Below are positions 1-8,795 of a DNA stretch of 20,000 bases, in pieces. Each line of letters starts with the position of its first letter. The stretch's first letter is position 1. The notes below the pieces were generated by a model. That model was not told the origin of the DNA and did not search any database. It saw only the letters and a list, made by a program, of their open reading frames with translations. The position numbers and the translations under genes are program-made. The DNA is from an uncultured virus (IMG/VR IMGVR_UViG_3300027278_000010). Its lineage: Duplodnaviria; Heunggongvirae; Uroviricota; Caudoviricetes; Schitoviridae. The DNA is taken from the IMG/VR virus record IMGVR_UViG_3300027278_000010; one strand, written 5' to 3'.

Positions 1-951
1 AGCACGGGAGTACCAACCAATCTCCTCTTCTTGCACCAAGCGTTCTTCTTCAGACGTGATACGAAGCATGAGTTCCTGATAAAAGGAAGACAGCTTGCCC
101 GTCTGAACAGCCATCGTGTATTGCTCTTGGATGTAGTCAAAGCTGAAGCGGTCCTCCCATGCCCCACAGAAATCCTCTCGTGTGCAGGGGAAGCGTTCAC
201 ATACCGGCCATACGTTCACATCCCACGCACCAGACTCAACCGCTTCAATCAGAATGTCGTCAGTGTTGAATGGCGTACCGTTGAAGATCACCTTGCGCCG
301 AGTTGGATCAAGGGCGTGGTTCACCCCCTTATAAACAGTGTCTTTGATCGCTTCCATCGAAACCTTCGACTTGGAGTCGTCATCGCTTACCAAGTCATCG
401 AGCACACATAGCACCGGTCGCTTACCGAAAATCTTCGTACCACGAAGACCAGTCTTGGCACCAAACATCTTGACCCCAAGCATGTGTCCTTCGACGTTCA
501 CAAATTCCAGATATCCGTCTGTGAATGTCGCGTGTGGAATCCACTGCTGCAAAAAGGCGCTGTTGTCGTAGCGAAACTTGATGTTCTTCTTGGCAGACTT
601 CACGCCGTTGTCCATCGAGTCGGACACGTAGATCATGCCAGTGACCTTACCCAATCCAGGTAGGTGACCGAACATCGCAATGAAGAGCACCAGATACTCC
701 ATAAACAAAGTCGTCTTCGCTGCACCACGGAAGCACAGGTTGGCGATGTACTTGTTTGGAGAGATCACCTTGTCCAACATCTTTAGGTGAACAGGTGGGG
801 TTTTGTGGCTTTCGCCTTCTTCGCCATTGACCAGCTTGATGAAGTTCATGAAGGTCAAGGCAAATTCGGATGGCAGGTAGTCACTGGAGTTCAGCTCTGA
901 ATAGCTGACCTGATTCAGCCACTCGTCAAGCTTTTGCTTTTGCAGCGTCAT
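1..951 (-). CDS. terL: Terminase large subunit (N4 gp68-like), N-terminal ATPase part; runs off the window
   Basis: Not in the ORF track because it has no stop in the window. The ATG at 951 overlaps the upstream TGA. Translates MTLQKQKLDEWLNQV...KTPPVHLKMLD...LCFRGAAKTT (Walker A variant)...GAKTGLRGTKIFGKRPVLCVLDDL (Walker B)...FNGTPF, typical of N4-like TerL. Confidence 0.95.
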   Translation of the reverse strand, partial: MTLQKQKLDEWLNQVSYSELNSSDYLPSEFALTFMNFIKLVNGEEGESHKTPPVHLKMLDKVISPNKYIANLCFRGAAKTTLFMEYLVLFIAMFGHLPGLGKVTGMIYVSDSMDNGVKSAKKNIKFRYDNSAFLQQWIPHATFTDGYLEFVNVEGHMLGVKMFGAKTGLRGTKIFGKRPVLCVLDDLVSDDDSKSKVSMEAIKDTVYKGVNHALDPTRRKVIFNGTPFNTDDILIEAVESGAWDVNVWPVCERFPCTREDFCGAWEDRFSFDYIQEQYTMAVQTGKLSSFYQELMLRITSEEERLVQEEEIGWYSRA

Positions 952-1151
952 GGTCGTTCTCCAACATACCCATTTGACTGATCGACCTTATCCTTTGCCA
1001 GCTTGAGTGCAGCGACTCGTTCGTCCTGATGGGTGAATCCCATCAGAACAATAGCAGCTGGACGCTCTCCATTAAGAACAGCGCCCCGGAGTTTTGTTGG
1101 CCAAACATAATTCTGTTTCTTATTGGACTTCCAATATACCTCTATGATCAT
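948..1151 (-). CDS. Hypothetical protein, 67 aa
   Basis: ORF translationally coupled at both ends by ATGA overlaps with the gp69-like gene and terL. Confidence 0.7.
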   Translation of the reverse strand: MIIEVYWKSNKKQNYVWPTKLRGAVLNGERPAAIVLMGFTHQDERVAALKLAKDKVDQSNGYVGERP

Positions 1152-1819
1152 ACCACTTCGCCTTGGATGATTCGTTGACCAGCAATCTCGCGGGTGTTCA
1201 CACCAAGCTCAATCAATTCTTGCTGACGCTTGGCCATAGATGCCAATGCTTCACGCATCTCGTTCATACCACTCGACTCATTGATATCAATGCTGATCTT
1301 ACCAGCTACTTCTTTCGGTTTAGCCAAGTGAGTGAGGATAGAGTTGGCCGCAGTGGTACGCACCATCTCGCTCTGTGCGTTTTGCATCAGGTCCACTTGA
1401 GTATTGATAGCCTTCTGATAGTTCTCTTGGTTCAACAACCACACTGGAATCAGCGACTGTTCCAGGATTGCGTTGACCAGTTTACCTTTGTGGTACGCAG
1501 CAACGTATGAAGAGATGTCTTTGCTGGACGTACCCTTAGCCACCAGTGCTTGATGCCGGCTTGGAAAGGTTTTGAAGTAGGCGTCTTGGTTGCTGTACCC
1601 CATGTGCTTGAAGCTGACATAGGCAACGGCATGCACATAGTCTTCGGACTTGTACTTGCCTTCCTTTAATACGTGGGCGTAGCTGATGAAATTTTGCTGC
1701 ACCTGCTCGGCTATCAGCGGGTCTGCAACGATGTTGTTGACCAGATCAGCCAGTTGCTGAGTAGCAGCAGTCTTCAGGTTGGCAGGCAGCGCCTGAGCGA
1801 TTTCCTGTTTAGTCAGCAT
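1148..1819 (-). CDS. N4 gp69-like conserved protein (proposed small terminase subunit)
   Basis: MLTKQEIAQALPANLK...YVHAVAYVSFKHMGYSNQDAYFKTFP...SSYVAAYHKGKLVNAILEQS...SEMVRTTAANSILTHL resembles N4 gp69; lies upstream of terL; GAGGA RBS. Confidence 0.85.
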   Translation of the reverse strand: MLTKQEIAQALPANLKTAATQQLADLVNNIVADPLIAEQVQQNFISYAHVLKEGKYKSEDYVHAVAYVSFKHMGYSNQDAYFKTFPSRHQALVAKGTSSKDISSYVAAYHKGKLVNAILEQSLIPVWLLNQENYQKAINTQVDLMQNAQSEMVRTTAANSILTHLAKPKEVAGKISIDINESSGMNEMREALASMAKRQQELIELGVNTREIAGQRIIQGEVV

Positions 1820-1869: not shown

Positions 1870-2634
1870 TTACTGGGTTTGACGAGCAACGCGAGAAGCG
1901 AGGCTGTTGTAGTAGGTCTGCATAGCCGAAAGCTGATTGAGCATATCGTTACGCTCTTCTTGGATCAGGCTCTTGAATACATCGCCTTCGGTGAACATAC
2001 GCAGCTTGGTGATGTTACCACCCAGAGTGGCCAGCTCGCTTTGCATGCGGGTCACATGGGTTTGCACCTTTGGAGTAGCCACAAGGGAGTAGCTTTTCTC
2101 AAACACATCTCGCGGTGACCAGGAGATGTAACCGTCAAAGCCAGCTACGTTGTTGATGCCACCGTCCACGTATTGAACCAAGTAGCCCTCATCCTCACCG
2201 TTCTCATCGAGCGGCAGGCTCCAACCACGCAGGATGGTGTAGTCCAGACGATTCATTGGAACAAAGTGAACAACCTTCTGGCCGAGCGCAGTCTTCACAG
2301 GCTCTGCTTGATGAAGGATCGCGCCGGTAGGTACGCCTGCTTTTTCGATAGCAGCAAGACGACACTTCAGCTCATAGCCCATGAGCATCCAGATTTTTTC
2401 TTCGGCATTCTCTCTGGAGATTTTTTCGCCGGTGCTCTTCACGTAGTTCTCAGGACTGGCACACGCAGATTCGCCGGTCACCATGAAACCGTTTTGCAGG
2501 GTGATCACGCAGATGGTTAGCAAGCCGTGGTACAGGAACTCCACATTCTTGATGTTCGCTTGTTGCATATCCCGAGTAACACGGGGGGCAAGGGCAGCGG
2601 CCTGAAGTTCTGCTTCGGTAATGCTTGTGGTCAT
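1870..2634 (-). CDS. Three-domain putative anti-defence protein: Phage_gp49_66 (Acb4-like) + 'GYISWSP' domain + crAss001_48-like (Sequestin-like) helical domain
   Basis: ATG at 2634 after GGAGAG RBS. Domain 1 TICVITLQNGFMVTGESACASPENY...KIWMLMGYELK; domain 2 KVVHFVPMNRLDY...RGWSLPLDENGEDEGYLVQY...GYISWSPRDVFEKSY; domain 3 HVTRMQSELATL...KLRMF...FKSL...QLSAMQTYYNSLASRV. Confidence 0.75.
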   Translation of the reverse strand: MTTSITEAELQAAALAPRVTRDMQQANIKNVEFLYHGLLTICVITLQNGFMVTGESACASPENYVKSTGEKISRENAEEKIWMLMGYELKCRLAAIEKAGVPTGAILHQAEPVKTALGQKVVHFVPMNRLDYTILRGWSLPLDENGEDEGYLVQYVDGGINNVAGFDGYISWSPRDVFEKSYSLVATPKVQTHVTRMQSELATLGGNITKLRMFTEGDVFKSLIQEERNDMLNQLSAMQTYYNSLASRVARQTQ

Positions 2635-2836
2635 ATCTCTCTCCAATACATCTCTAGGGTATGCGGACCACCCGTCTATTTTTTCTTTGGGTGGTTGCTT
2701 CTTGCGATTTACACTTTAGACTCTTTATAGTTTTTGCTCAAACTCTTTCTCCTACAAGGACAAGGAGGGCCATTCCTATTGTCTGTTGATACTCAACAGC
2801 CACAATAAAAACTGAACTTCCCTAATCAAATGAACG

Positions 2837-2845
2837 TGTTATATT
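2837..2845 (+). promoter_or_regulatory. Putative host sigma70 extended -10 promoter
   Basis: TG-T-TATATT at 2837-2845 with a weak -35 TTCCCT at 2818-2823; predicted start about G2852. Confidence 0.5.
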
Positions 2846-2851
2846 CGCGTT

Positions 2852-3054
2852 GCGCCTGGGCTGCTACCAGGGGTGATGCTTCTTGGATTGCCATAGCAAC
2901 CCTAGCGGAAGTGGGGATATAACAACCGCAGGTGACGGGCCGCTACTCCTTCTGGAACTACACCAGTCAGGTCAGAGTCACTAGCAGAGGCAGTCTGCTG
3001 GAAAAAAACGCAGGGGGAAGGGATCAGGCTTACATTGGCTGGTCCCTTCTTTTT
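2852..3054 (+). ncRNA. Candidate structured non-coding RNA (~200 nt)
   Basis: Five successive stems between an extended -10 promoter and an intrinsic terminator; no convincing RBS/ORF inside. Confidence 0.5.
3017..3054 (+). terminator. Rho-independent terminator
   Basis: GAAGGGATCAG (3017-3027) pairs with CTGGTCCCTTC (3039-3049), followed by TTTTT. Confidence 0.8.
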
Positions 3055-3078
3055 ACCCACTACTTCAAGATATCTCTA

Positions 3079-3333
3079 ATGACCGACCACCTATTTATGT
3101 TCAGAAAAGATATTGGATGGAGTCCTTCTTCTGAGACTTATCTGTATTCGACTGACTGCAAAGACACAGTTCTTCTGGTTATGAACCAAGAGGAAAAGCA
3201 CCTCTACACAGGGTTGGCTTTGATGTACGGCAAGTCACCTGAGCTGCTGATCTTCTCAGAGGACTACGATCCGTATGGGGATGCTGCATTTGGTAGACAG
3301 GTCTTCTGCACCTTCAAACCAAGCAACTCTTAA
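3079..3333 (+). CDS. Hypothetical protein, 84 aa
   Basis: 3' part of track ORF 2932..3333; ATG 3079 lies downstream of the terminator; protein-like composition but weak RBS. Confidence 0.5.
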   Translation: MTDHLFMFRKDIGWSPSSETYLYSTDCKDTVLLVMNQEEKHLYTGLALMYGKSPELLIFSEDYDPYGDAAFGRQVFCTFKPSNS

Positions 3334-3410
3334 ACATAGAACTATCTTTGTATATGGAGGGGTAGCCCAAAATTTTTCATACGGATTTTGGTGGTAGGCA
3401 TGTTTCGTGG

Positions 3411-3497
3411 TACTTCTCACACATTCACACCCACCCCAAATAACAACTACCCCCCCGGTATCACACTCTCACACCTCACACCCTACCCCACCTTCTA
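3411..3497. repeat. C/A-rich tract with five TCACAC copies around a C7GG core; probable genome terminus / terminal-repeat region
   Basis: TCACAC at 3417, 3425, 3461, 3469 and 3476; only two G in ~87 nt on the + strand; lies between the late genes and the first early promoter. Confidence 0.6.
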
Positions 3498-3503
3498 GGT
3501 CGG

Positions 3504-3521
3504 GACGCTCTGCGTCTATTG
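3504..3521 (+). promoter_or_regulatory. Virion RNA polymerase hairpin promoter (early promoter 1)
   Basis: GACGC-TCT-GCGTC-TATT-G: 5-bp stem, 3-nt loop, 4-nt A/T spacer, then G, the architecture of N4 P2 (GAAGC-TCC-GCTTC-TTTT-G); directly upstream of gp1. Confidence 0.8.
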
Positions 3522-3554
3522 GCACTATCGCCACTACTACTTAGGAGTATCACC

Positions 3555-3881
3555 ATGGCTACTGCACGTCTTACCTTCGGCTCTATCTTGGCCACTGTAA
3601 ACACCACTGCAAACACCATCACAGCTACCCTCGACGCAGCCAGCTCTGGCGTAGGCATGCTCAATGCCTTCGTCGATAACGCAGCTAAACATCAGAAGGC
3701 TCGTATCGCCGTCGATAACGAAGACTTCATCGAGAACCTCATCCGTGACAAATCACGTGAACGCACTGCTTCCACTCTGGAAGTACAGAAGTTCATCGCT
3801 CAGTCACCGGAACATGCTGAAGCTTACAAGTCAGCATACGAAACCTACACCGCAATCCTACGCCCTGCAAAACAGGGCTAA
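3555..3881 (+). CDS. N4 gp1-like early protein (middle-transcription cofactor)
   Basis: AGGAG RBS then ATG 3555; MATARLTFGSILATVNTTA...FIAQSPEHAEAY resembles N4 gp1; first gene after the vRNAP promoter. Confidence 0.8.
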   Translation: MATARLTFGSILATVNTTANTITATLDAASSGVGMLNAFVDNAAKHQKARIAVDNEDFIENLIRDKSRERTASTLEVQKFIAQSPEHAEAYKSAYETYTAILRPAKQG

Positions 3882-3895
3882 ATCCCACCTAAACC

Positions 3896-3916
3896 GTGGC
3901 GGCTAGCAACCGCCAC
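3896..3916 (+). other. GC-rich hairpin after gp1, no U-tract
   Basis: GTGGCGG-CTAGCAA-CCGCCAC. Confidence 0.5.
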
Positions 3917-3943
3917 ATCTACAACCCCAGGAGAGTCACAGCG

Positions 3944-4036
3944 ATGGTCAACTATTTGATCCTTCCAGCAGCTTACTGTGCCTTCGGCACTTGGCTTCTA
4001 CTCAGCGCGCTGAACGCGCTTAACCTACCAATCTAA
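3944..4036 (+). CDS. Small hydrophobic protein, 30 aa
   Basis: Below the track cutoff. AGGAG RBS; MVNYLILPAAYCAFGTWLLLSALNALNLPI. Confidence 0.55.
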   Translation: MVNYLILPAAYCAFGTWLLLSALNALNLPI

Positions 4037-4056
4037 CAACCAAAGAGAGTCTCTTT

Positions 4057-4230
4057 ATGCTCAAGCCACTCATGTTCATCATGACCGGAATCGTCTACTC
4101 GTTAGTCTCATTCCAAACTTGGGAATATCTGTTCGGTGTAAGCATGAAAGGCTTTCACCCACTCCTAAGTTTACTGGTCTTAGTTGGTGTAACCATTGTC
4201 TGCCTTGTGGCAGTCAAGCAAGAAAACTAG
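4057..4230 (+). CDS. Small membrane protein with two hydrophobic segments, 57 aa
   Basis: MLKPLMFIMTGIVYSLVSFQTWEYLFGVSMKGFHPLLSLLVLVGVTIVCLVAVKQEN; fills the gap up to promoter 2. Confidence 0.55.
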   Translation: MLKPLMFIMTGIVYSLVSFQTWEYLFGVSMKGFHPLLSLLVLVGVTIVCLVAVKQEN

Positions 4231-4247
4231 GCGCTCCGCGCCTTTTG
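4229..4247 (+). promoter_or_regulatory. Virion RNA polymerase hairpin promoter (early promoter 2)
   Basis: A-GGCGC-TCC-GCGCC-TTTT-G; loop, loop-closing base pairs and spacer match N4 P2; upstream of gp2. Confidence 0.9.
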
Positions 4248-4304
4248 GGAATGATCCCTAGAGCAATCCTGCTCAATCTCTTCACTGCATCAAGGAGTAA
4301 CATC

Positions 4305-4700
4305 ATGGGCGATATCAGCTTTGAGAAAACCTTCGGCAATCAAGCCAAAGCAGCAACCGCTGTTAAAGAGGATCGCCCTAAAGCGAACCTCTGGCTGAAC
4401 ATCGGCTACAGCGTTGAAGTCGATACTGCTGAAGGCGTCGAGCAGCGCTTCGTAAGCCTGCCGGTCGGCATTCCATTGGACACTATGGAACCTCTGCCGA
4501 CCAACAGCCGCAATGCAGACTTCGCTGCATTCCAAGCAGCACGCAACAACCTGCATGAGCAAATCATGGCAGCTGCTCAAGCACTGCAACCAGGTGAGGA
4601 GAAAATCCTCAATCTGCAAATCCAACTCCGTCGTGTCAACGAAGAGTCGGTTGCAGTTGACTCCAGCAAAAACCAGTTCATCAAACCACTGGCGCTGTAA
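4305..4700 (+). CDS. drc: N4 gp2 / LUZ7 Drc-like ssDNA-binding activator of RNAP II
   Basis: AAGGAG RBS then ATG 4305; DRPKANLWLNIGY...FVSLPVGIPLDTMEPLPTNSRNADF...LQPGEE...LQIQLRRV matches the gp2/Drc family. Confidence 0.92.
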   Translation: MGDISFEKTFGNQAKAATAVKEDRPKANLWLNIGYSVEVDTAEGVEQRFVSLPVGIPLDTMEPLPTNSRNADFAAFQAARNNLHEQIMAAAQALQPGEEKILNLQIQLRRVNEESVAVDSSKNQFIKPLAL

Positions 4701-4705
4701 CCAAC

Positions 4706-4737
4706 AAGGGCTATCTCCACTCGGAGGTAGCCCTTTT
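4706..4737 (+). terminator. Rho-independent terminator after gp2
   Basis: AAGGGCTATCTCC-ACTC-GGAGGTAGCCCTT-TT. Confidence 0.85.
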
Positions 4738-4862
4738 AATGCGTCAGAGATAGTTCAAAGCTCAACTCTGAGTTTCAACTCACCTAAATACTAAGTTGAA
4801 CTTTTAACAGTCATTTGGCTAAAGCTACCTAAACACTTAGAGATAAGTATGAGGAAGAAACT

Positions 4863-5078
4863 ATGTCACTAAAAGACCCTGTTGATAAACGTATACGTGA
4901 TCTCATCATTCGCCACGAGAACTGGAAAAACCAATGGAAAGAAGTCAATTACGGCTTTTCTGTTGAATGGGTAAGTCCTCGTGGGAAGTACATGACGTAC
5001 TCAGCTTACTGCTCTGAAGTGGAAAAGCATCTTCAGAACACCATCAAGAAAATCAGAGAAACACTGGACAAGGAATAG
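4863..5078 (+). CDS. Hypothetical protein, 71 aa
   Basis: ORF with GAGGA RBS. Confidence 0.75.
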   Translation: MSLKDPVDKRIRDLIIRHENWKNQWKEVNYGFSVEWVSPRGKYMTYSAYCSEVEKHLQNTIKKIRETLDKE

Positions 5079-5084
5079 GCAAAA

Positions 5085-5651
5085 ATGAATGTCATTGCGC
5101 TAGCAAAACTACTCAATCAGTACATCAGCCAAGGTGCTGGTGAATACCTCATTGCTGCCTTTAATCCTCCTGAAGGATTGGGCAGCGAGCTAGTAACAGA
5201 AGTGGTAACACGCGATGTATCCAACGTGCTGGAGTTCTACACCGGCACAGTTCCTCACAATCCAAACCACATCAAATGGCAAAAGCGGGATGGCTACGAA
5301 TGTTCCAGCGTCGGAGACAAACGCTTCAGTGCACTCAATGCTCTCATGCCAGATGGTCGCTCAATTGAGATGTGGTATCAGTGCGACATCAAAGGCTATG
5401 ACATTGGTGGCACTGATTGGAAGAAGGGCAAAGGCAAACCGCCTTTGTTTGAATTTCCAAACAATCAGCTATGGCAGCTGTATCTAAATCTGTGGCGACT
5501 GTGGGCAATCCAAAATAGCCATCTGATTATCGAACTCATGGAACTGGCAAAAACAAAAGACAACATCTTGTCTGATTGCTTTGCATCCAGCCCTATCAAC
5601 CAAGCACGAGCACTCGCCACCATTATCAATGAGTGGCTGGTTGGGAGTTAA
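5085..5651 (+). CDS. Putative NADAR-superfamily (DarT1-antitoxin-like) protein
   Basis: YECSSVGDKRFSALNA...GRSIEMWYQCDIKGY...WKKGKGK recalls the E-x-SS...SAFN...S-V-E-x-x-F/Y-Q-x-x-K pattern of NADAR proteins; AAGGA RBS. Confidence 0.55.
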   Translation: MNVIALAKLLNQYISQGAGEYLIAAFNPPEGLGSELVTEVVTRDVSNVLEFYTGTVPHNPNHIKWQKRDGYECSSVGDKRFSALNALMPDGRSIEMWYQCDIKGYDIGGTDWKKGKGKPPLFEFPNNQLWQLYLNLWRLWAIQNSHLIIELMELAKTKDNILSDCFASSPINQARALATIINEWLVGS

Positions 5652-5653
5652 AA

Positions 5654-5902
5654 ATGACAACTCGCAAAATCCATATTGGCAGCACTACTGCCGCAGTACG
5701 TGATGTATTCGGTCTCTCAATACAAGAAGCCAAACAATTTGTAATGAGAAGGTCTCTACTAAACAAAGTAGACGACGCATCATCTATTGATGATTTAAAG
5801 GAAATTCTCTCAAGTTTGATAAAACGTCAAATGGGGGAGGATTCCCACCAAACAGATAGGATAGATGATTTCATCAAAACCTATGATCAAAACAAAATGT
5901 AA
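5654..5902 (+). CDS. Hypothetical protein, 82 aa, with an L7/L12 CTD-like motif
   Basis: GGGAG RBS then ATG 5654; AVRDVFGLSIQEAKQFV. Confidence 0.7.
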   Translation: MTTRKIHIGSTTAAVRDVFGLSIQEAKQFVMRRSLLNKVDDASSIDDLKEILSSLIKRQMGEDSHQTDRIDDFIKTYDQNKM

Positions 5903-5912
5903 GGAGAAACAC

Positions 5913-6200
5913 ATGCACCTCTTAGCAACTGTATTTATCCCTCCACATGGCAAACAAGAAATCATTGAAATAAAAGATGTAGCTGTTGAAGACAAAGAAT
6001 ACTTTGTCAAAAACAACATTGATATTTCAATGGAAGAACTCAGCACTGGCGTGAAAGTAGTTTACGCCGACTGGGGCAATCGTATGACCGATGGCACACC
6101 AAAAGAATCAATGGTGTTCTCCCGTGATAACGAAACTTGCGCAAGCACTCTCAAACGCTTGCGCTTAGTGGTTGAACTCGAAAAAGAGAACAACCTTTAA
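5913..6200 (+). CDS. Hypothetical protein, 95 aa
   Basis: AAGGAG RBS then ATG 5913. Confidence 0.8.
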   Translation: MHLLATVFIPPHGKQEIIEIKDVAVEDKEYFVKNNIDISMEELSTGVKVVYADWGNRMTDGTPKESMVFSRDNETCASTLKRLRLVVELEKENNL

Positions 6201-6320
6201 GGAATCGGTTTCCCCCTCGCGGGGAAAACCTCTCGCACCGAGTACCAACTATGTATCGAAATACAACCACAGATACATATGGTGGTTACACCATCTTTGA
6301 ACCAAAGGAGCTAAGAAGCC

Positions 6321-6617
6321 ATGACAACTTCTCAACAGTTAGTCCAAGCAGCCCTCAATCGCCAACTTCCAAAGAAACAAATCGAAGCAAACTCTGTAAG
6401 TGGCTTAGTAAAAGCCGCTGTAAAGATCATCAAGAATGAAATCAAAGTGTCGGGCACTGACTACTTGATTGAACGTGTGGCGAACTACACAGACACCACC
6501 ATCACCAAACCAACACTCATGCGTTGGGTAAAGAGCGAAACTCATACGCCGCATCTCAGCAAGCTCAATGCTGTGCTGATTGCGTGCGGATACCAACTGT
6601 CGTTGGTGAAGAAGTAA
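6321..6617 (+). CDS. XRE/Cro-like helix-turn-helix protein
   Basis: AAGGAG RBS; IERVANYTDTTITKPTLMRWVKSETHTPHLSKLNAVLIACGYQL is an HTH-like pattern. Confidence 0.7.
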   Translation: MTTSQQLVQAALNRQLPKKQIEANSVSGLVKAAVKIIKNEIKVSGTDYLIERVANYTDTTITKPTLMRWVKSETHTPHLSKLNAVLIACGYQLSLVKK

Positions 6618-6799
6618 TGGGCCTCGGGCCAATAGTGAATGGGAAACAGCAACCCATCACTCCCTATAAAGGTTCATGGGCTGACTCCATGAACAAACAA
6701 GAACTCTGGGAAGCTGACCCAAACTGCAAACACGAGGTAAAACCAGCTCCAGGCGGTGGTGTGAAATGCACCAAATGCCGTGGCTGGTTTTGTTACTGA
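6617..6799 (+). CDS. Small Cys-rich (zinc-ribbon-like) protein, 60 aa
   Basis: TAATG coupling with the previous gene; DPNCKHEV...GGGVKCTKCRGWFCY. Confidence 0.75.
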   Translation: MGLGPIVNGKQQPITPYKGSWADSMNKQELWEADPNCKHEVKPAPGGGVKCTKCRGWFCY

Positions 6800-6800
6800 C

Positions 6801-7070
6801 ATGGCCCATTACCTCGTGTACTGGAGTTCAGGAAAGAGTGAGCCTCGTGCTTCTAATTGGTACACCTTGAATGGGGTAATCACTCACGCATCACCTGCTC
6901 TTAAAGAATGGCAAGGTGGTAGTCACAAAGCACTCGTGCGTTACTTGCATCGCCATGGCTATTCAATAATGCACATCAACAATCTGTGCGCTCCAACAAG
7001 CATCGCTTACCACAATCAGCTTAAAAGCTGTGTGGACAGTCTTCTTCAACTAATGAACGAAAGGAAATAA
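6801..7070 (+). CDS. Hypothetical protein, 89 aa
   Basis: ATG 1 nt after the previous stop; packed operon. Confidence 0.65.
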   Translation: MAHYLVYWSSGKSEPRASNWYTLNGVITHASPALKEWQGGSHKALVRYLHRHGYSIMHINNLCAPTSIAYHNQLKSCVDSLLQLMNERK

Positions 7071-7072
7071 CT

Positions 7073-7258
7073 ATGTACTACGGCGTATTAGCAACACTGA
7101 CTGCTTGGTTGATCATTCTTGTGATCAACATTGTATTGAGCCGCCCAAATGAACACATGAACTACCCGAAAGTTTACTTTCACTTAGTTGTGTTCATCAT
7201 CATAGGTATCGTCTTCGGTTCGTTTTACGAACTCTGGGCAGAGGTGCCTTATGAGTGA
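7073..7258 (+). CDS. Small membrane protein with two hydrophobic segments, 61 aa
   Basis: AAGGA RBS; two hydrophobic stretches. Confidence 0.75.
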   Translation: MYYGVLATLTAWLIILVINIVLSRPNEHMNYPKVYFHLVVFIIIGIVFGSFYELWAEVPYE

Positions 7259-7415
7259 CCCAACAAAACCCAAGTATCACTTGTTAAAAGGCACCGCAGC
7301 AGATGGTGCCAAAATTGCTGTGTGCGGTAAAACCGTACATGAACATTTAATCAGCAAAGATGCGGTCCTCGTATCTTGCTCCAATTGTCTCAAATGGATG
7401 ATCAAAAATGGCTAA
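7251..7415 (+). CDS. Small zinc-finger-like protein, 54 aa
   Basis: Not in the track. GAGGT RBS; MSDPTKPKYHLL...AVCGK...VSCSNCLKWMIKNG (H...C...CxxC). Confidence 0.7.
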   Translation: MSDPTKPKYHLLKGTAADGAKIAVCGKTVHEHLISKDAVLVSCSNCLKWMIKNG

Positions 7416-7791
7416 GCCAATCTTTGTATTCGGTTCAAACGAAGCAGGTATGCACGGTGCTGGCGCAGCCGCATTTGCATATAAGAACAAGGGTGCACGT
7501 TACGGTAAAGGCTACGGTCATCATGGTGATTCGTGGGCTATTCCAACCAAAGACATGGACATCATGACTTTGCCGCTTGACCGCATTAACGACTACGTGA
7601 CTGGCTTCCTTGCCTATGCACGTGGTCACCGCAAGCTGACATTCCAGGTCAGCTGCATCGGCTGTGGTCTGGCCGGTCTCAAGCATTCTGACATTGCACC
7701 GATGTTCAAGAACGCACCTGCCAACTGCCAATTCGATGAGAAATGGCGTCCTTATCTGGGCGATGCTTTCACCTACTGGGGAACCTTCTAA
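7408..7791 (+). CDS. Macrodomain-like protein (N4 gp14-like, 'IFVFGSN' family)
   Basis: IFVFGSNEAGMHGAGAA...WAIPTK...IGCGLAG resembles the macrodomain loops N-x(5-6)-GGG and IGCGIAG/IGTG. Confidence 0.75.
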   Translation: MAKPIFVFGSNEAGMHGAGAAAFAYKNKGARYGKGYGHHGDSWAIPTKDMDIMTLPLDRINDYVTGFLAYARGHRKLTFQVSCIGCGLAGLKHSDIAPMFKNAPANCQFDEKWRPYLGDAFTYWGTF

Positions 7792-7964
7792 TGGCCAGGT
7801 CTCCCAGAAGAGACCAAAAGCCAGAAGGCATTCCCTTATTGCAGCGCACGTCTTCCGGGCGTGTGGTGCTATTGCATGCCTTCTACGAAACACCCTGTTT
7901 TTACTGGTTTCGTGCATCGAAATTAGCCAAACAGTCCAAGCACTATCAGCTCACTCGTCTTTAG
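7791..7964 (+). CDS. Hypothetical basic protein, 57 aa
   Basis: TAATG coupling; MARSPRRDQKPEG... Confidence 0.55.
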   Translation: MARSPRRDQKPEGIPLLQRTSSGRVVLLHAFYETPCFYWFRASKLAKQSKHYQLTRL

Positions 7965-7976
7965 GAGAAAGCACTC

Positions 7977-8795
7977 ATGGCCAACATGAAACTGATCAAC
8001 CACCAACGTGAGTTGGAAAAGCTGTTCAACAAGAATCAGCTGATACCTCGTATCAAAGCTGAGTTTATGAACTGCACTGCATTCGACTTTGTTGAATACA
8101 TCCAAGACAACGGCATTCCTATTGCCTTTGGTCTTGATCTGCTTGTGCAGATGCAGCTTCACAAACGCATTCAGTTGCCGGCTCTAGTTGGCATCATGAA
8201 CAAACACTTTGACGATCCACAACAGACAACCGACATGCTGTACCACTGCATGAAGATTGACCTGCTGGATTGGCACAGTGACCTCAAGGTCTTCATCGTG
8301 AAGTTCACCATCTCGCAAGAGGTGCAGGATGAACTCGACCGTTTCCAATTCCCATTGCCAATGGTCGTGATGCCCAAGCTGGTCAAGTCAAACCGGGATA
8401 CCGGTTACTACACCAGTCTGGGTTCCATCATCCTCAAGAAGAACCATCACGACAACGATGTGTGTCTGGACCACATCAACCGCCTCAACAAAACCAAATT
8501 CGTCATCAACTCAGATGTAGCCAACATGGTTAAGAACCAATGGCGAAATCTGGACAAGGCGAAAGAAGGTGAAACAAGAGATGACTTTGAGAAGCGCAAA
8601 CGTGCTTTCGAGAAGTACGACCGCACCTCTCGTGATGTGATCAAACTGATCCAGCAAGAAGGTGAACACTTCCACCTGACTCACAAGTACGACAAGCGTG
8701 GCCGTACCTACTGTCAGGGCTACCACATCAACTACCAAGGTGCCCCTTGGAACAAAGCTGTCGTGCATTTTGCCGACGCTGAGGAAGTCGTATGA
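7977..8795 (+). CDS. RNA polymerase II subunit 1 (N4 gp15-like)
   Basis: AGGAG RBS; FQFPLPMVVMP...HKYDKRGRTYCQGYHINYQG contains the DxRGRxY motif of T7-like RNAPs. Confidence 0.97.
   Translation: MANMKLINHQRELEKLFNKNQLIPRIKAEFMNCTAFDFVEYIQDNGIPIAFGLDLLVQMQLHKRIQLPALVGIMNKHFDDPQQTTDMLYHCMKIDLLDWHSDLKVFIVKFTISQEVQDELDRFQFPLPMVVMPKLVKSNRDTGYYTSLGSIILKKNHHDNDVCLDHINRLNKTKFVINSDVANMVKNQWRNLDKAKEGETRDDFEKRKRAFEKYDRTSRDVIKLIQQEGEHFHLTHKYDKRGRTYCQGYHINYQGAPWNKAVVHFADAEEVV

Follow-up and report, generated by a model that had tools for sequence, protein, structure and literature searches.

A candidate counter-defence protein of an N4-like phage in which a conserved unnamed domain lies between Acb4 and Sequestin modules

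The joining of phage sponges against CBASS and Thoeris signals within single polypeptides has been described in two recent preprints. PF21825, named Sequestin by Tal et al., was found to be the commonest fusion partner of Acb4 with 91 instances, the fusion of phage YH6 being shown in their Fig. 1C, and an Acb4-Tad2 fusion cancelled both Thoeris and CBASS (Tal et al., bioRxiv 10.1101/2025.07.12.664507). The Acb4-Sequestin protein gp59 of Pseudomonas phage vB_PaeP_C2-10_Ab09 has been tested both biochemically and genetically, binding 1'',3'-gcADPR tightly and 3',3'-cGAMP more weakly, with binding also to 2',3'-cAA, and forming a tetramer that is a strong inhibitor of type I Thoeris and a partial one of type II-A CBASS while triggering Panoptes (Fedorova et al., bioRxiv 10.64898/2026.06.04.730250). 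Here we describe a gene at positions 1,870 to 2,634 of a 20,000-nucleotide stretch of DNA (the window) from an uncultured virus of the Schitoviridae (IMG/VR record IMGVR_UViG_3300027278_000010), the product of which carries a third domain, called X below, between its Acb4 and Sequestin modules. A first-pass annotation had proposed a single polypeptide countering both CBASS and Thoeris, but because one protein acting against both systems is already published the two-sponge logic is ordinary; the new part is the inserted X, which is conserved and unnamed.

The explanation that best fits the evidence, to which we give a probability of roughly 55%, is that an N4-like phage makes from this gene a counter-defence protein of three modules in which an Acb4 sponge and a Sequestin sponge would be carried in one polypeptide beside an X having an anti-defence activity of its own, directed at its own signal or target. 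The ligands, the oligomeric states, the activity of X and the timing of expression are predictions drawn from homology, distribution and gene position.

The gene is a single open reading frame (ORF) on the minus strand, running from an ATG at 2634 to a stop codon at 1870-1872 and encoding 254 amino acids (aa). The division of its product into three compact modules, seen by eye in the first-pass annotation, is borne out by Pfam, by a match of the middle stretch (aa 111-186) to phrog_872 (E 2e-20) and by an AlphaFold2 model built on an 85-sequence alignment, which has a mean predicted local distance difference test score (pLDDT) of 93.2 and folds into three separate units at aa 7-99, 114-181 and 193-253. 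The parts of the gene are as follows.

1870 to 2634, minus strand: whole ORF, Acb4-X-Sequestin fusion (ORF list, Pfam, AlphaFold2)
2338 to 2577, minus strand: module 1 (aa 20-99), Acb4-family domain of three strands and a long helix (PF13876, Foldseek)
2299 to 2337, minus strand: linker (aa 100-112), poorly conserved, with none of its 13 columns conserved at 90% or more
2080 to 2298, minus strand: module 2, or X (aa 113-185), unnamed sponge-associated domain with the order strand-strand-helix-strand-strand-helix
1885 to 2061, minus strand: module 3 (aa 192-250), Sequestin-family helical hairpin with R196, E200, Q234 and R248 (PF21825)

X is the most conserved of the three modules. Across 85 three-module proteins the mean pairwise identity is 61% in X, 49% in the Acb4 module and 34% in the Sequestin module, with columns conserved at 90% or more numbering 25 of 73, 13 of 80 and 7 of 59, respectively. 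Among the 120 best listed homologues of near-full length, 81 (the window protein included) carry both PF13876 and PF21825 and the remaining 39, mostly of about 186-225 aa, carry PF13876 only; many near-length homologues are located on contigs of 72-77 kb, and a contig of 76,110 bases carries the exact sequence of the ORF. A search of 50,697 phage records found 606 matching some part of the fusion protein, only six of which did so over at least 80% of it (Arace01, CL, CRC2, RHph_X3_15 and Philippe, the last under two accessions).

Module 1 belongs to the Acb4 family, as had been proposed. Pfam places PF13876 (Phage_gp49_66) at aa 20-92 with 83.1 bits against a cut-off of 27 (E 2.1e-23), the family to which Acb4 of phage SPO1 has been assigned (Chang et al., bioRxiv 10.1101/2024.12.30.630793), and Foldseek aligns the module with the SPO1 structure (PDB 9e4w) at a probability of 1.00 over 67-71 columns, with a TM-score by target of 0.68-0.74 and a root-mean-square deviation (rmsd) of 1.4-1.7. 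[quoted passage not shown] Sequence identity to the module is 43% for the Acb4 portion of Ab09 gp59 (over 61 aa) and 45% for Acb4 of the N4 species phage Bas69. The pocket of SPO1 Acb4 is formed by K36, F48, E49, V56, Y57, F62, N63, I66, T70 and K81, and in a weak phmmer alignment (E 0.48) its two stacking aromatics are kept, F48 as F50 and F62 as Y64; the loop following strand 3 (E55-N63) is near-invariant within this phage family. By homology the module would form a tetramer sequestering cyclic dinucleotides such as 3'3'-cGAMP and c-di-AMP from CBASS-type systems, Acb4 of N4 being reported to bind c-di-AMP at 111 nM and to trigger PanDA.

Module 3 belongs to the Sequestin family, again in keeping with the first-pass annotation, PF21825 (crAss001_48) being placed by Pfam at aa 192-250 with 46.5 bits against a cut-off of 24.8 (E 3.5e-12). 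Its model is a two-helix hairpin (helices 193-215 and 225-253, pLDDT about 96-98). The contacts to 3'cADPR are R8, E12, Q47 and R61 in SequestinA and R7, E11, Q45 and R59 in SequestinB, and mutation of the E, the Q or the last R abolished activity (Tal et al., bioRxiv 10.1101/2025.07.12.664507). Judged by eye from motif spacing, R196, E200, Q234 and R248 are spaced as in SequestinB, such that all four contacts are present, and across the 85 homologues E200, Q234 and R248 are invariant with R196 conserved at 90% or more. The module would thus be predicted from homology to form an antiparallel dimer sequestering the Thoeris signal 3'cADPR. For Acb4 only part of the pocket is kept relative to SPO1, and the residue mapping is weaker than for Sequestin because the phmmer alignment has an E of 0.48.

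Searched alone against Pfam at E up to 10 X matched no family. Sequence searches of the PDB with the whole protein, and with the X profile (no hits at E up to 10), found no solved structure related to X or to the Sequestin module. A model of X alone (pLDDT 91.2) had no significant Foldseek match in the PDB (best E 3.1), while VIA-align against 48,161 chains gave a best Z of 3.9 (DUF1653, 3be3, 52 residues, rmsd 2.5) and, at a second look, 3.2. Monomer models of X have four to five strands and two helices, with Y132, R136, G150, Y155, N162 and W172 invariant. A homodimer prediction with two copies scored 0.24 against a mark of 0.42, which counts neither for nor against self-association. In a search of the available literature that did not take in the supplements of the Fedorova et al. 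preprint no paper naming or testing canonical X was found.

An exhaustive HMMER search with aa 105-190 found 1199 representatives of 50%-identity clusters at E of 0.001 or below, 544 of them at 1e-10 or below, and 146 of the best 150 were scanned with Pfam, the other four being left out as already known to carry PF13876 and PF21825. The partners of X in these 146 proteins, tallied by hand, were as follows.

Acb4 and Sequestin: 21
Acb4 only: 14
Sequestin only: 25
Tad2 only: 32
Tad2 and Sequestin: 2
Tad2 and Acb4: 1
Acb2/Tad1 hairpin: 2, one of them below the cut-off
YceI: 1
No family: 48

A known sponge domain (Acb4, Sequestin, Tad2 or the Acb2/Tad1 hairpin) is thus present in 97 of the 146. 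The core X motif also occurs 164 plus 58 times in the Sequestin homologue table of Tal et al., and two proteins in their Lockin homologue table begin with an X-like domain. Twelve of the 13 Sequestins tested in that study were inspected here and all are single-domain proteins, so X was absent from those assays. The description of module 2 as a separate small domain fused elsewhere to Tad2 (DUF2829) holds good in the scanned relatives and in phage IME11, where, as in Bas69, X occupies aa 11-80 and Tad2 aa 83-165 of one protein (IME11_19 and bas69_0022). X is not itself Tad2 (PF11195): an ESM Atlas row had hinted at a Tad2-like aligned part within it, but hhalign against the Tad2 domain of IME11_19 gave no support (2.2%, 17 columns).

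In 16 of the 48 relatives with no family X is essentially free-standing, having fewer than 45 aa outside it, while the other 32 carry 45-163 aa belonging to no Pfam family. All-against-all BLASTP of these 32 partner regions found no pair at E of 1e-3 or below; six have sub-threshold matches to Sequestin, Tad2 or the Acb2/Tad1 hairpin, and 26 show no match, even a weak one, to a sponge family. Free-standing X also appears in ESM Atlas clusters that consist of X only, one of 78 aa with 114 members and one of 75 aa with 58, and in the complete genome of Pseudomonas phage HHBS14_1 as a 73-aa gene two genes upstream of an Acb2/Tad1-hairpin gene. The HHBS14_1 cluster (1183-1899) consists of this X gene, a 66-aa ORF of unknown nature and the hairpin gene, and in Clostridium phage CP51 (995-1665) a 68-aa Tad2 gene abuts an X-Acb4 gene; both are cases of X outside the N4-like phages and within small anti-defence clusters.

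Among the roles that X might play an autonomous anti-defence activity is favoured, with a chance that comes close to even, on four grounds: because free-standing X genes exist (16 of the 146 relatives, HHBS14_1 and the ESM Atlas clusters); because X is the most conserved module, with invariant Tyr, Arg, Tyr, Asn and Trp residues; because the domains fused to it belong to sponge families (97 of 146, to which RyR Tad and Lockin are added); and because those partners work without it, Ab09 gp59 being a tetramer lacking X and RyR Tad's C-terminal domain being active alone (bioRxiv 10.64898/2026.06.04.730250). Phages have joined X to nearly all known sponge families. More tentatively, and with the odds somewhat against it, X could be one more family by which phages bind immune signals, or else a counter-defence module that works autonomously in some other way, perhaps the most widespread of them, in which case the window protein would neutralise three signals.

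Several observations weigh against this explanation, among them those on RyR Tad (gp68 of Pectobacterium phage vB_PatP_CB1). To judge from profile comparison X is homologous to the N-terminal domain of this protein, hhalign aligning the X profile with aa 3-70 at 95.1% (E 3.2e-8, 68 columns), pairwise BLASTP giving E 0.003 over the core motif and Foldseek in BFVD matching X to a RyR-domain protein of Yersinia phage TG1 (probability 1.00, E 0.028). The domain alone (gp68_N, aa 1-86), the one X-like domain to have been assayed, "had no apparent activity" when set against type I Thoeris, and in the crystal it swaps its first strand, the resulting five-stranded sheet helping dimerisation (bioRxiv 10.64898/2026.06.04.730250). 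All this would suit an X that is purely structural, a strand-swapped dimer holding or spacing the sponge oligomers or raising their avidity, so that the window protein would be a sponge of two specificities, Acb4 and Sequestin; the location of X at the N-terminus, in the middle or at the C-terminus of different fusions is likewise what might be expected of a connector. Such a role is possible but doubtful, since X genes stand free, since X with its invariant residues is conserved above both sponge domains, and since neither the Acb4-Sequestin tetramer nor RyR Tad's C-terminal domain needs it. The gp68 copy of X is itself diverged and has neither the R-G-W nor the acidic-loop motif of canonical X. 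A shortened X with neither the helix nor the R-G-W loop, as in RyR Tad, is also seen in several Sequestin homologues from Pseudomonas prophages in the tables of Tal et al.

Other points are also to be set against an autonomous X flanked by two working sponges. The rows following DUF1653 in the VIA-align search are Tudor-, chromo- and CarD-like at Z of about 3, all rows falling within the range of common arrangements and offering no hint of function. X has a net charge of -4 here (family mean -4.2), unexpected for a nucleotide pocket though overall charge says little. The X motif is absent from the table of charged-pocket candidates screened by Tal et al., with matches in their tables only among the Sequestin and Lockin homologues. 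In module 1 the weak alignment to SPO1 Acb4 has differing residues at base-reading positions (K36 to L38, E49 to M51 and Y57 to A59), and upstream of the ORF no sigma-70 site was found on the minus strand, the scan giving two sites, both on the plus strand, against 2.4 expected by chance.

The acidity of X and its richness in aromatic residues (14%) could also point to a protein as its target, X then blunting the sensors of sponges (Panoptes, PanDA), blocking an effector or directing the protein into the virion for delivery at the next infection. A function tied to being a sponge would explain why X accompanies sponges that are unrelated in fold and ligand, Acb4 and Acb4-Sequestin proteins of N4-like phages have been reported to trigger PanDA and Panoptes, and the window gene lies in a late cluster, with one Acb4 homologue annotated as a "putative structural protein" in Agrobacterium phage OLIVR1. 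Bas69 nevertheless carries X-Tad2 beside Acb4 and is reportedly restricted by PanDA through that Acb4, which weakens a role in evading such guards. We regard action on a protein as improbable, and the wider class of protein-directed or other roles as unlikely though less so; an autonomous anti-defence activity remains the preferred role for X.

The first-pass annotation had also raised the cGAMP-cleaving Acb5 family as a candidate for module 2, by which the protein would both sponge and degrade CBASS signals. Nothing speaks for this beyond the size of X (about 70 aa) and its having conserved Arg and Trp residues. The one Acb5 homologue used for comparison, ORF 8 of Haloarcula virus SH1 (from Table S5 of Tal et al.), aligned with the X profile in hhalign at a probability of 0.27% over seven columns, and BLASTP gave nothing better than E 0.43. 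By eye no motif of X is to be seen in the printed rows for Acb5A and Acb5B, and X has no invariant His to match H61 of Acb5A. Reports of Acb5 come chiefly from phages infecting Actinobacteria, Bacillus and Haloarcula, whereas the phage-record matches of X are mainly to phages of Proteobacteria. The Acb5 assignment was accordingly dropped as very improbable indeed.

X is common and more conserved than the sponges that it joins. Its partners include Acb4, Sequestin and Tad2 as well as the Acb2/Tad1 hairpin, RyR Tad and Lockin, and it is present in the N4 species itself. Guilt by fusion led Tal et al. to Sequestin, but in a search that relied on Pfam families, to none of which X belongs. Should X have a target of its own, it would be a widespread part of phage counter-defence that has so far been missed, and a means of finding further families; used as bait, it would make the 26 of 32 Pfam-less partner regions lacking even a weak sponge match candidates for new sponge families. 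Were X only a dimerising unit, it would still explain how modular sponge fusions are constructed.

The position of the gene upstream of and co-oriented with the terminase genes, as given by the first-pass annotation, is upheld by the ORFs, the PHROG matches and synteny in relatives. The features around it are as follows.

2637 to 2644, minus strand: Shine-Dalgarno-like sequence GGAGAGAG, two bases 5' of the ATG at 2634 and a putative ribosome-binding site
1841 to 1862, no strand assigned: G+C-rich inverted repeat of 9 bp, lying after the fusion gene's stop and before the phrog_2109 gene begins, scored by the scan as terminator-like on the plus strand only
1148 to 1819, minus strand: next gene, 223 aa, phrog_2109 (E 1e-94; ORF list and PHROG match)
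948 to 1151, minus strand: 67-aa ORF between the phrog_2109 gene and the large terminase gene, overlapping both by a few bases
1 to 951, minus strand: large terminase subunit, N-terminal part, leaving the window (phrog_38, E 4.7e-51)

A TTG at 2646 lies in frame upstream of the ATG, and a start there would add four aa. The fusion gene stands 5' of the phrog_2109 and large terminase genes in the same orientation, and the order of divergent early genes, fusion gene, phrog_2109 gene and large terminase is conserved in Arace01, inbricus and Rhizobium phage RHph_X3_15. DNA-level matches to known phages are confined to the terminase region (16 N4-like records at 74-78% identity); those of the 16 whose taxonomy was inspected are Schitoviridae, the rest being records of about 70-76 kb matched solely over the large terminase gene. 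This terminase-side locus is distinct both from the primase-virion RNA polymerase hot spot of Fedorova et al. and from the site of Acb4 and X-Tad2 in N4 and IME11. The nearest record, a 44-kb fragment estimated to be 59% complete, contains a single match each to Acb4 and to X and none to Tad2. Late structural proteins have been reported to trigger these defence systems (Fedorova et al., bioRxiv 10.64898/2026.06.04.730250), so that production of the fusion protein at the time when they appear would make sense; from the place of the gene at the head of the terminase cluster the protein may be made late, together with the structural proteins.

In phage Arace01 the phrog_2109 protein goes by the name "small terminase subunit"; here it has only a weak match to the small-terminase family phrog_2538 (E 5.9e-4), and because that match is weak the name leans more on position than on similarity. 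The 67-aa ORF matched no Pfam or PHROG family and is not in the annotated synteny of inbricus and RHph_X3_15. The inverted repeat at 1841-1862 is possibly an intercistronic hairpin on the minus-strand mRNA, no gene ending there on the plus strand. The stretch of roughly 870 bases that separates the late cluster from the divergent early one (2647-3518) contains no convincing gene and has three copies of a 16-nt motif, 75-81% identical to the reference copy and spaced by 181 and 167 bases, which could be chance, regulatory sites or part of a genome-end region. Beyond them 10 plus-strand ORFs from the early region (3519-8795) gave no Pfam match at E 0.01.

Compared with the described systems, the window protein resembles SPO1 Acb4 (9e4w) in the fold and Pfam family of its first module, but SPO1 Acb4 is a single-domain protein of 96 aa, with about 24% identity in the structural alignment and several base-reading residues that differ in the weak sequence alignment. 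It joins two sponges, as does the Acb4-Tad2 protein from Pasteurella phage Pm86 that was shown by Tal et al. (2025) to cancel both Thoeris and CBASS; the Acb4 parts of the two match one another, and in Pm86 Tad2 takes the place of Sequestin. RyR Tad shares the arrangement of an X-homologous N-terminal domain (aa 3-70) fused to a sponge domain; its partner is instead an RyR-repeat sponge (PF02026) and its copy of X is shorter and diverged. The N4 species phage Bas69/AlfredRasser (bas69_0023 and bas69_0022) and the Gamaleyavirus IME11 (IME11_21 and IME11_19) are N4-like phages with the same Acb4 and X modules, the X of the window being 49% identical to that of Bas69 over 69 aa and 46% to that of IME11, but in these phages X forms the N-terminal part of a Tad2 protein and Acb4 has a gene of its own, the genes lying beside the virion RNA polymerase. 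The closest counterpart in design is Ab09 gp59, which also comes from an N4-like phage, has PF13876 followed by PF21825 in one polypeptide and by analogy would share the expected function of a sponge for gcADPR and cyclic dinucleotides, although BLASTP found no alignment between the two Sequestin parts. It differs in having only 147 aa, with Acb4 (1-83) joined directly to Sequestin (84-147) and no X, Pfam placing PF13876 at 4-79 and PF21825 at 86-143 with nothing between, and in being sited in the primase-virion RNA polymerase hot spot, whereas the window gene heads the terminase cluster.

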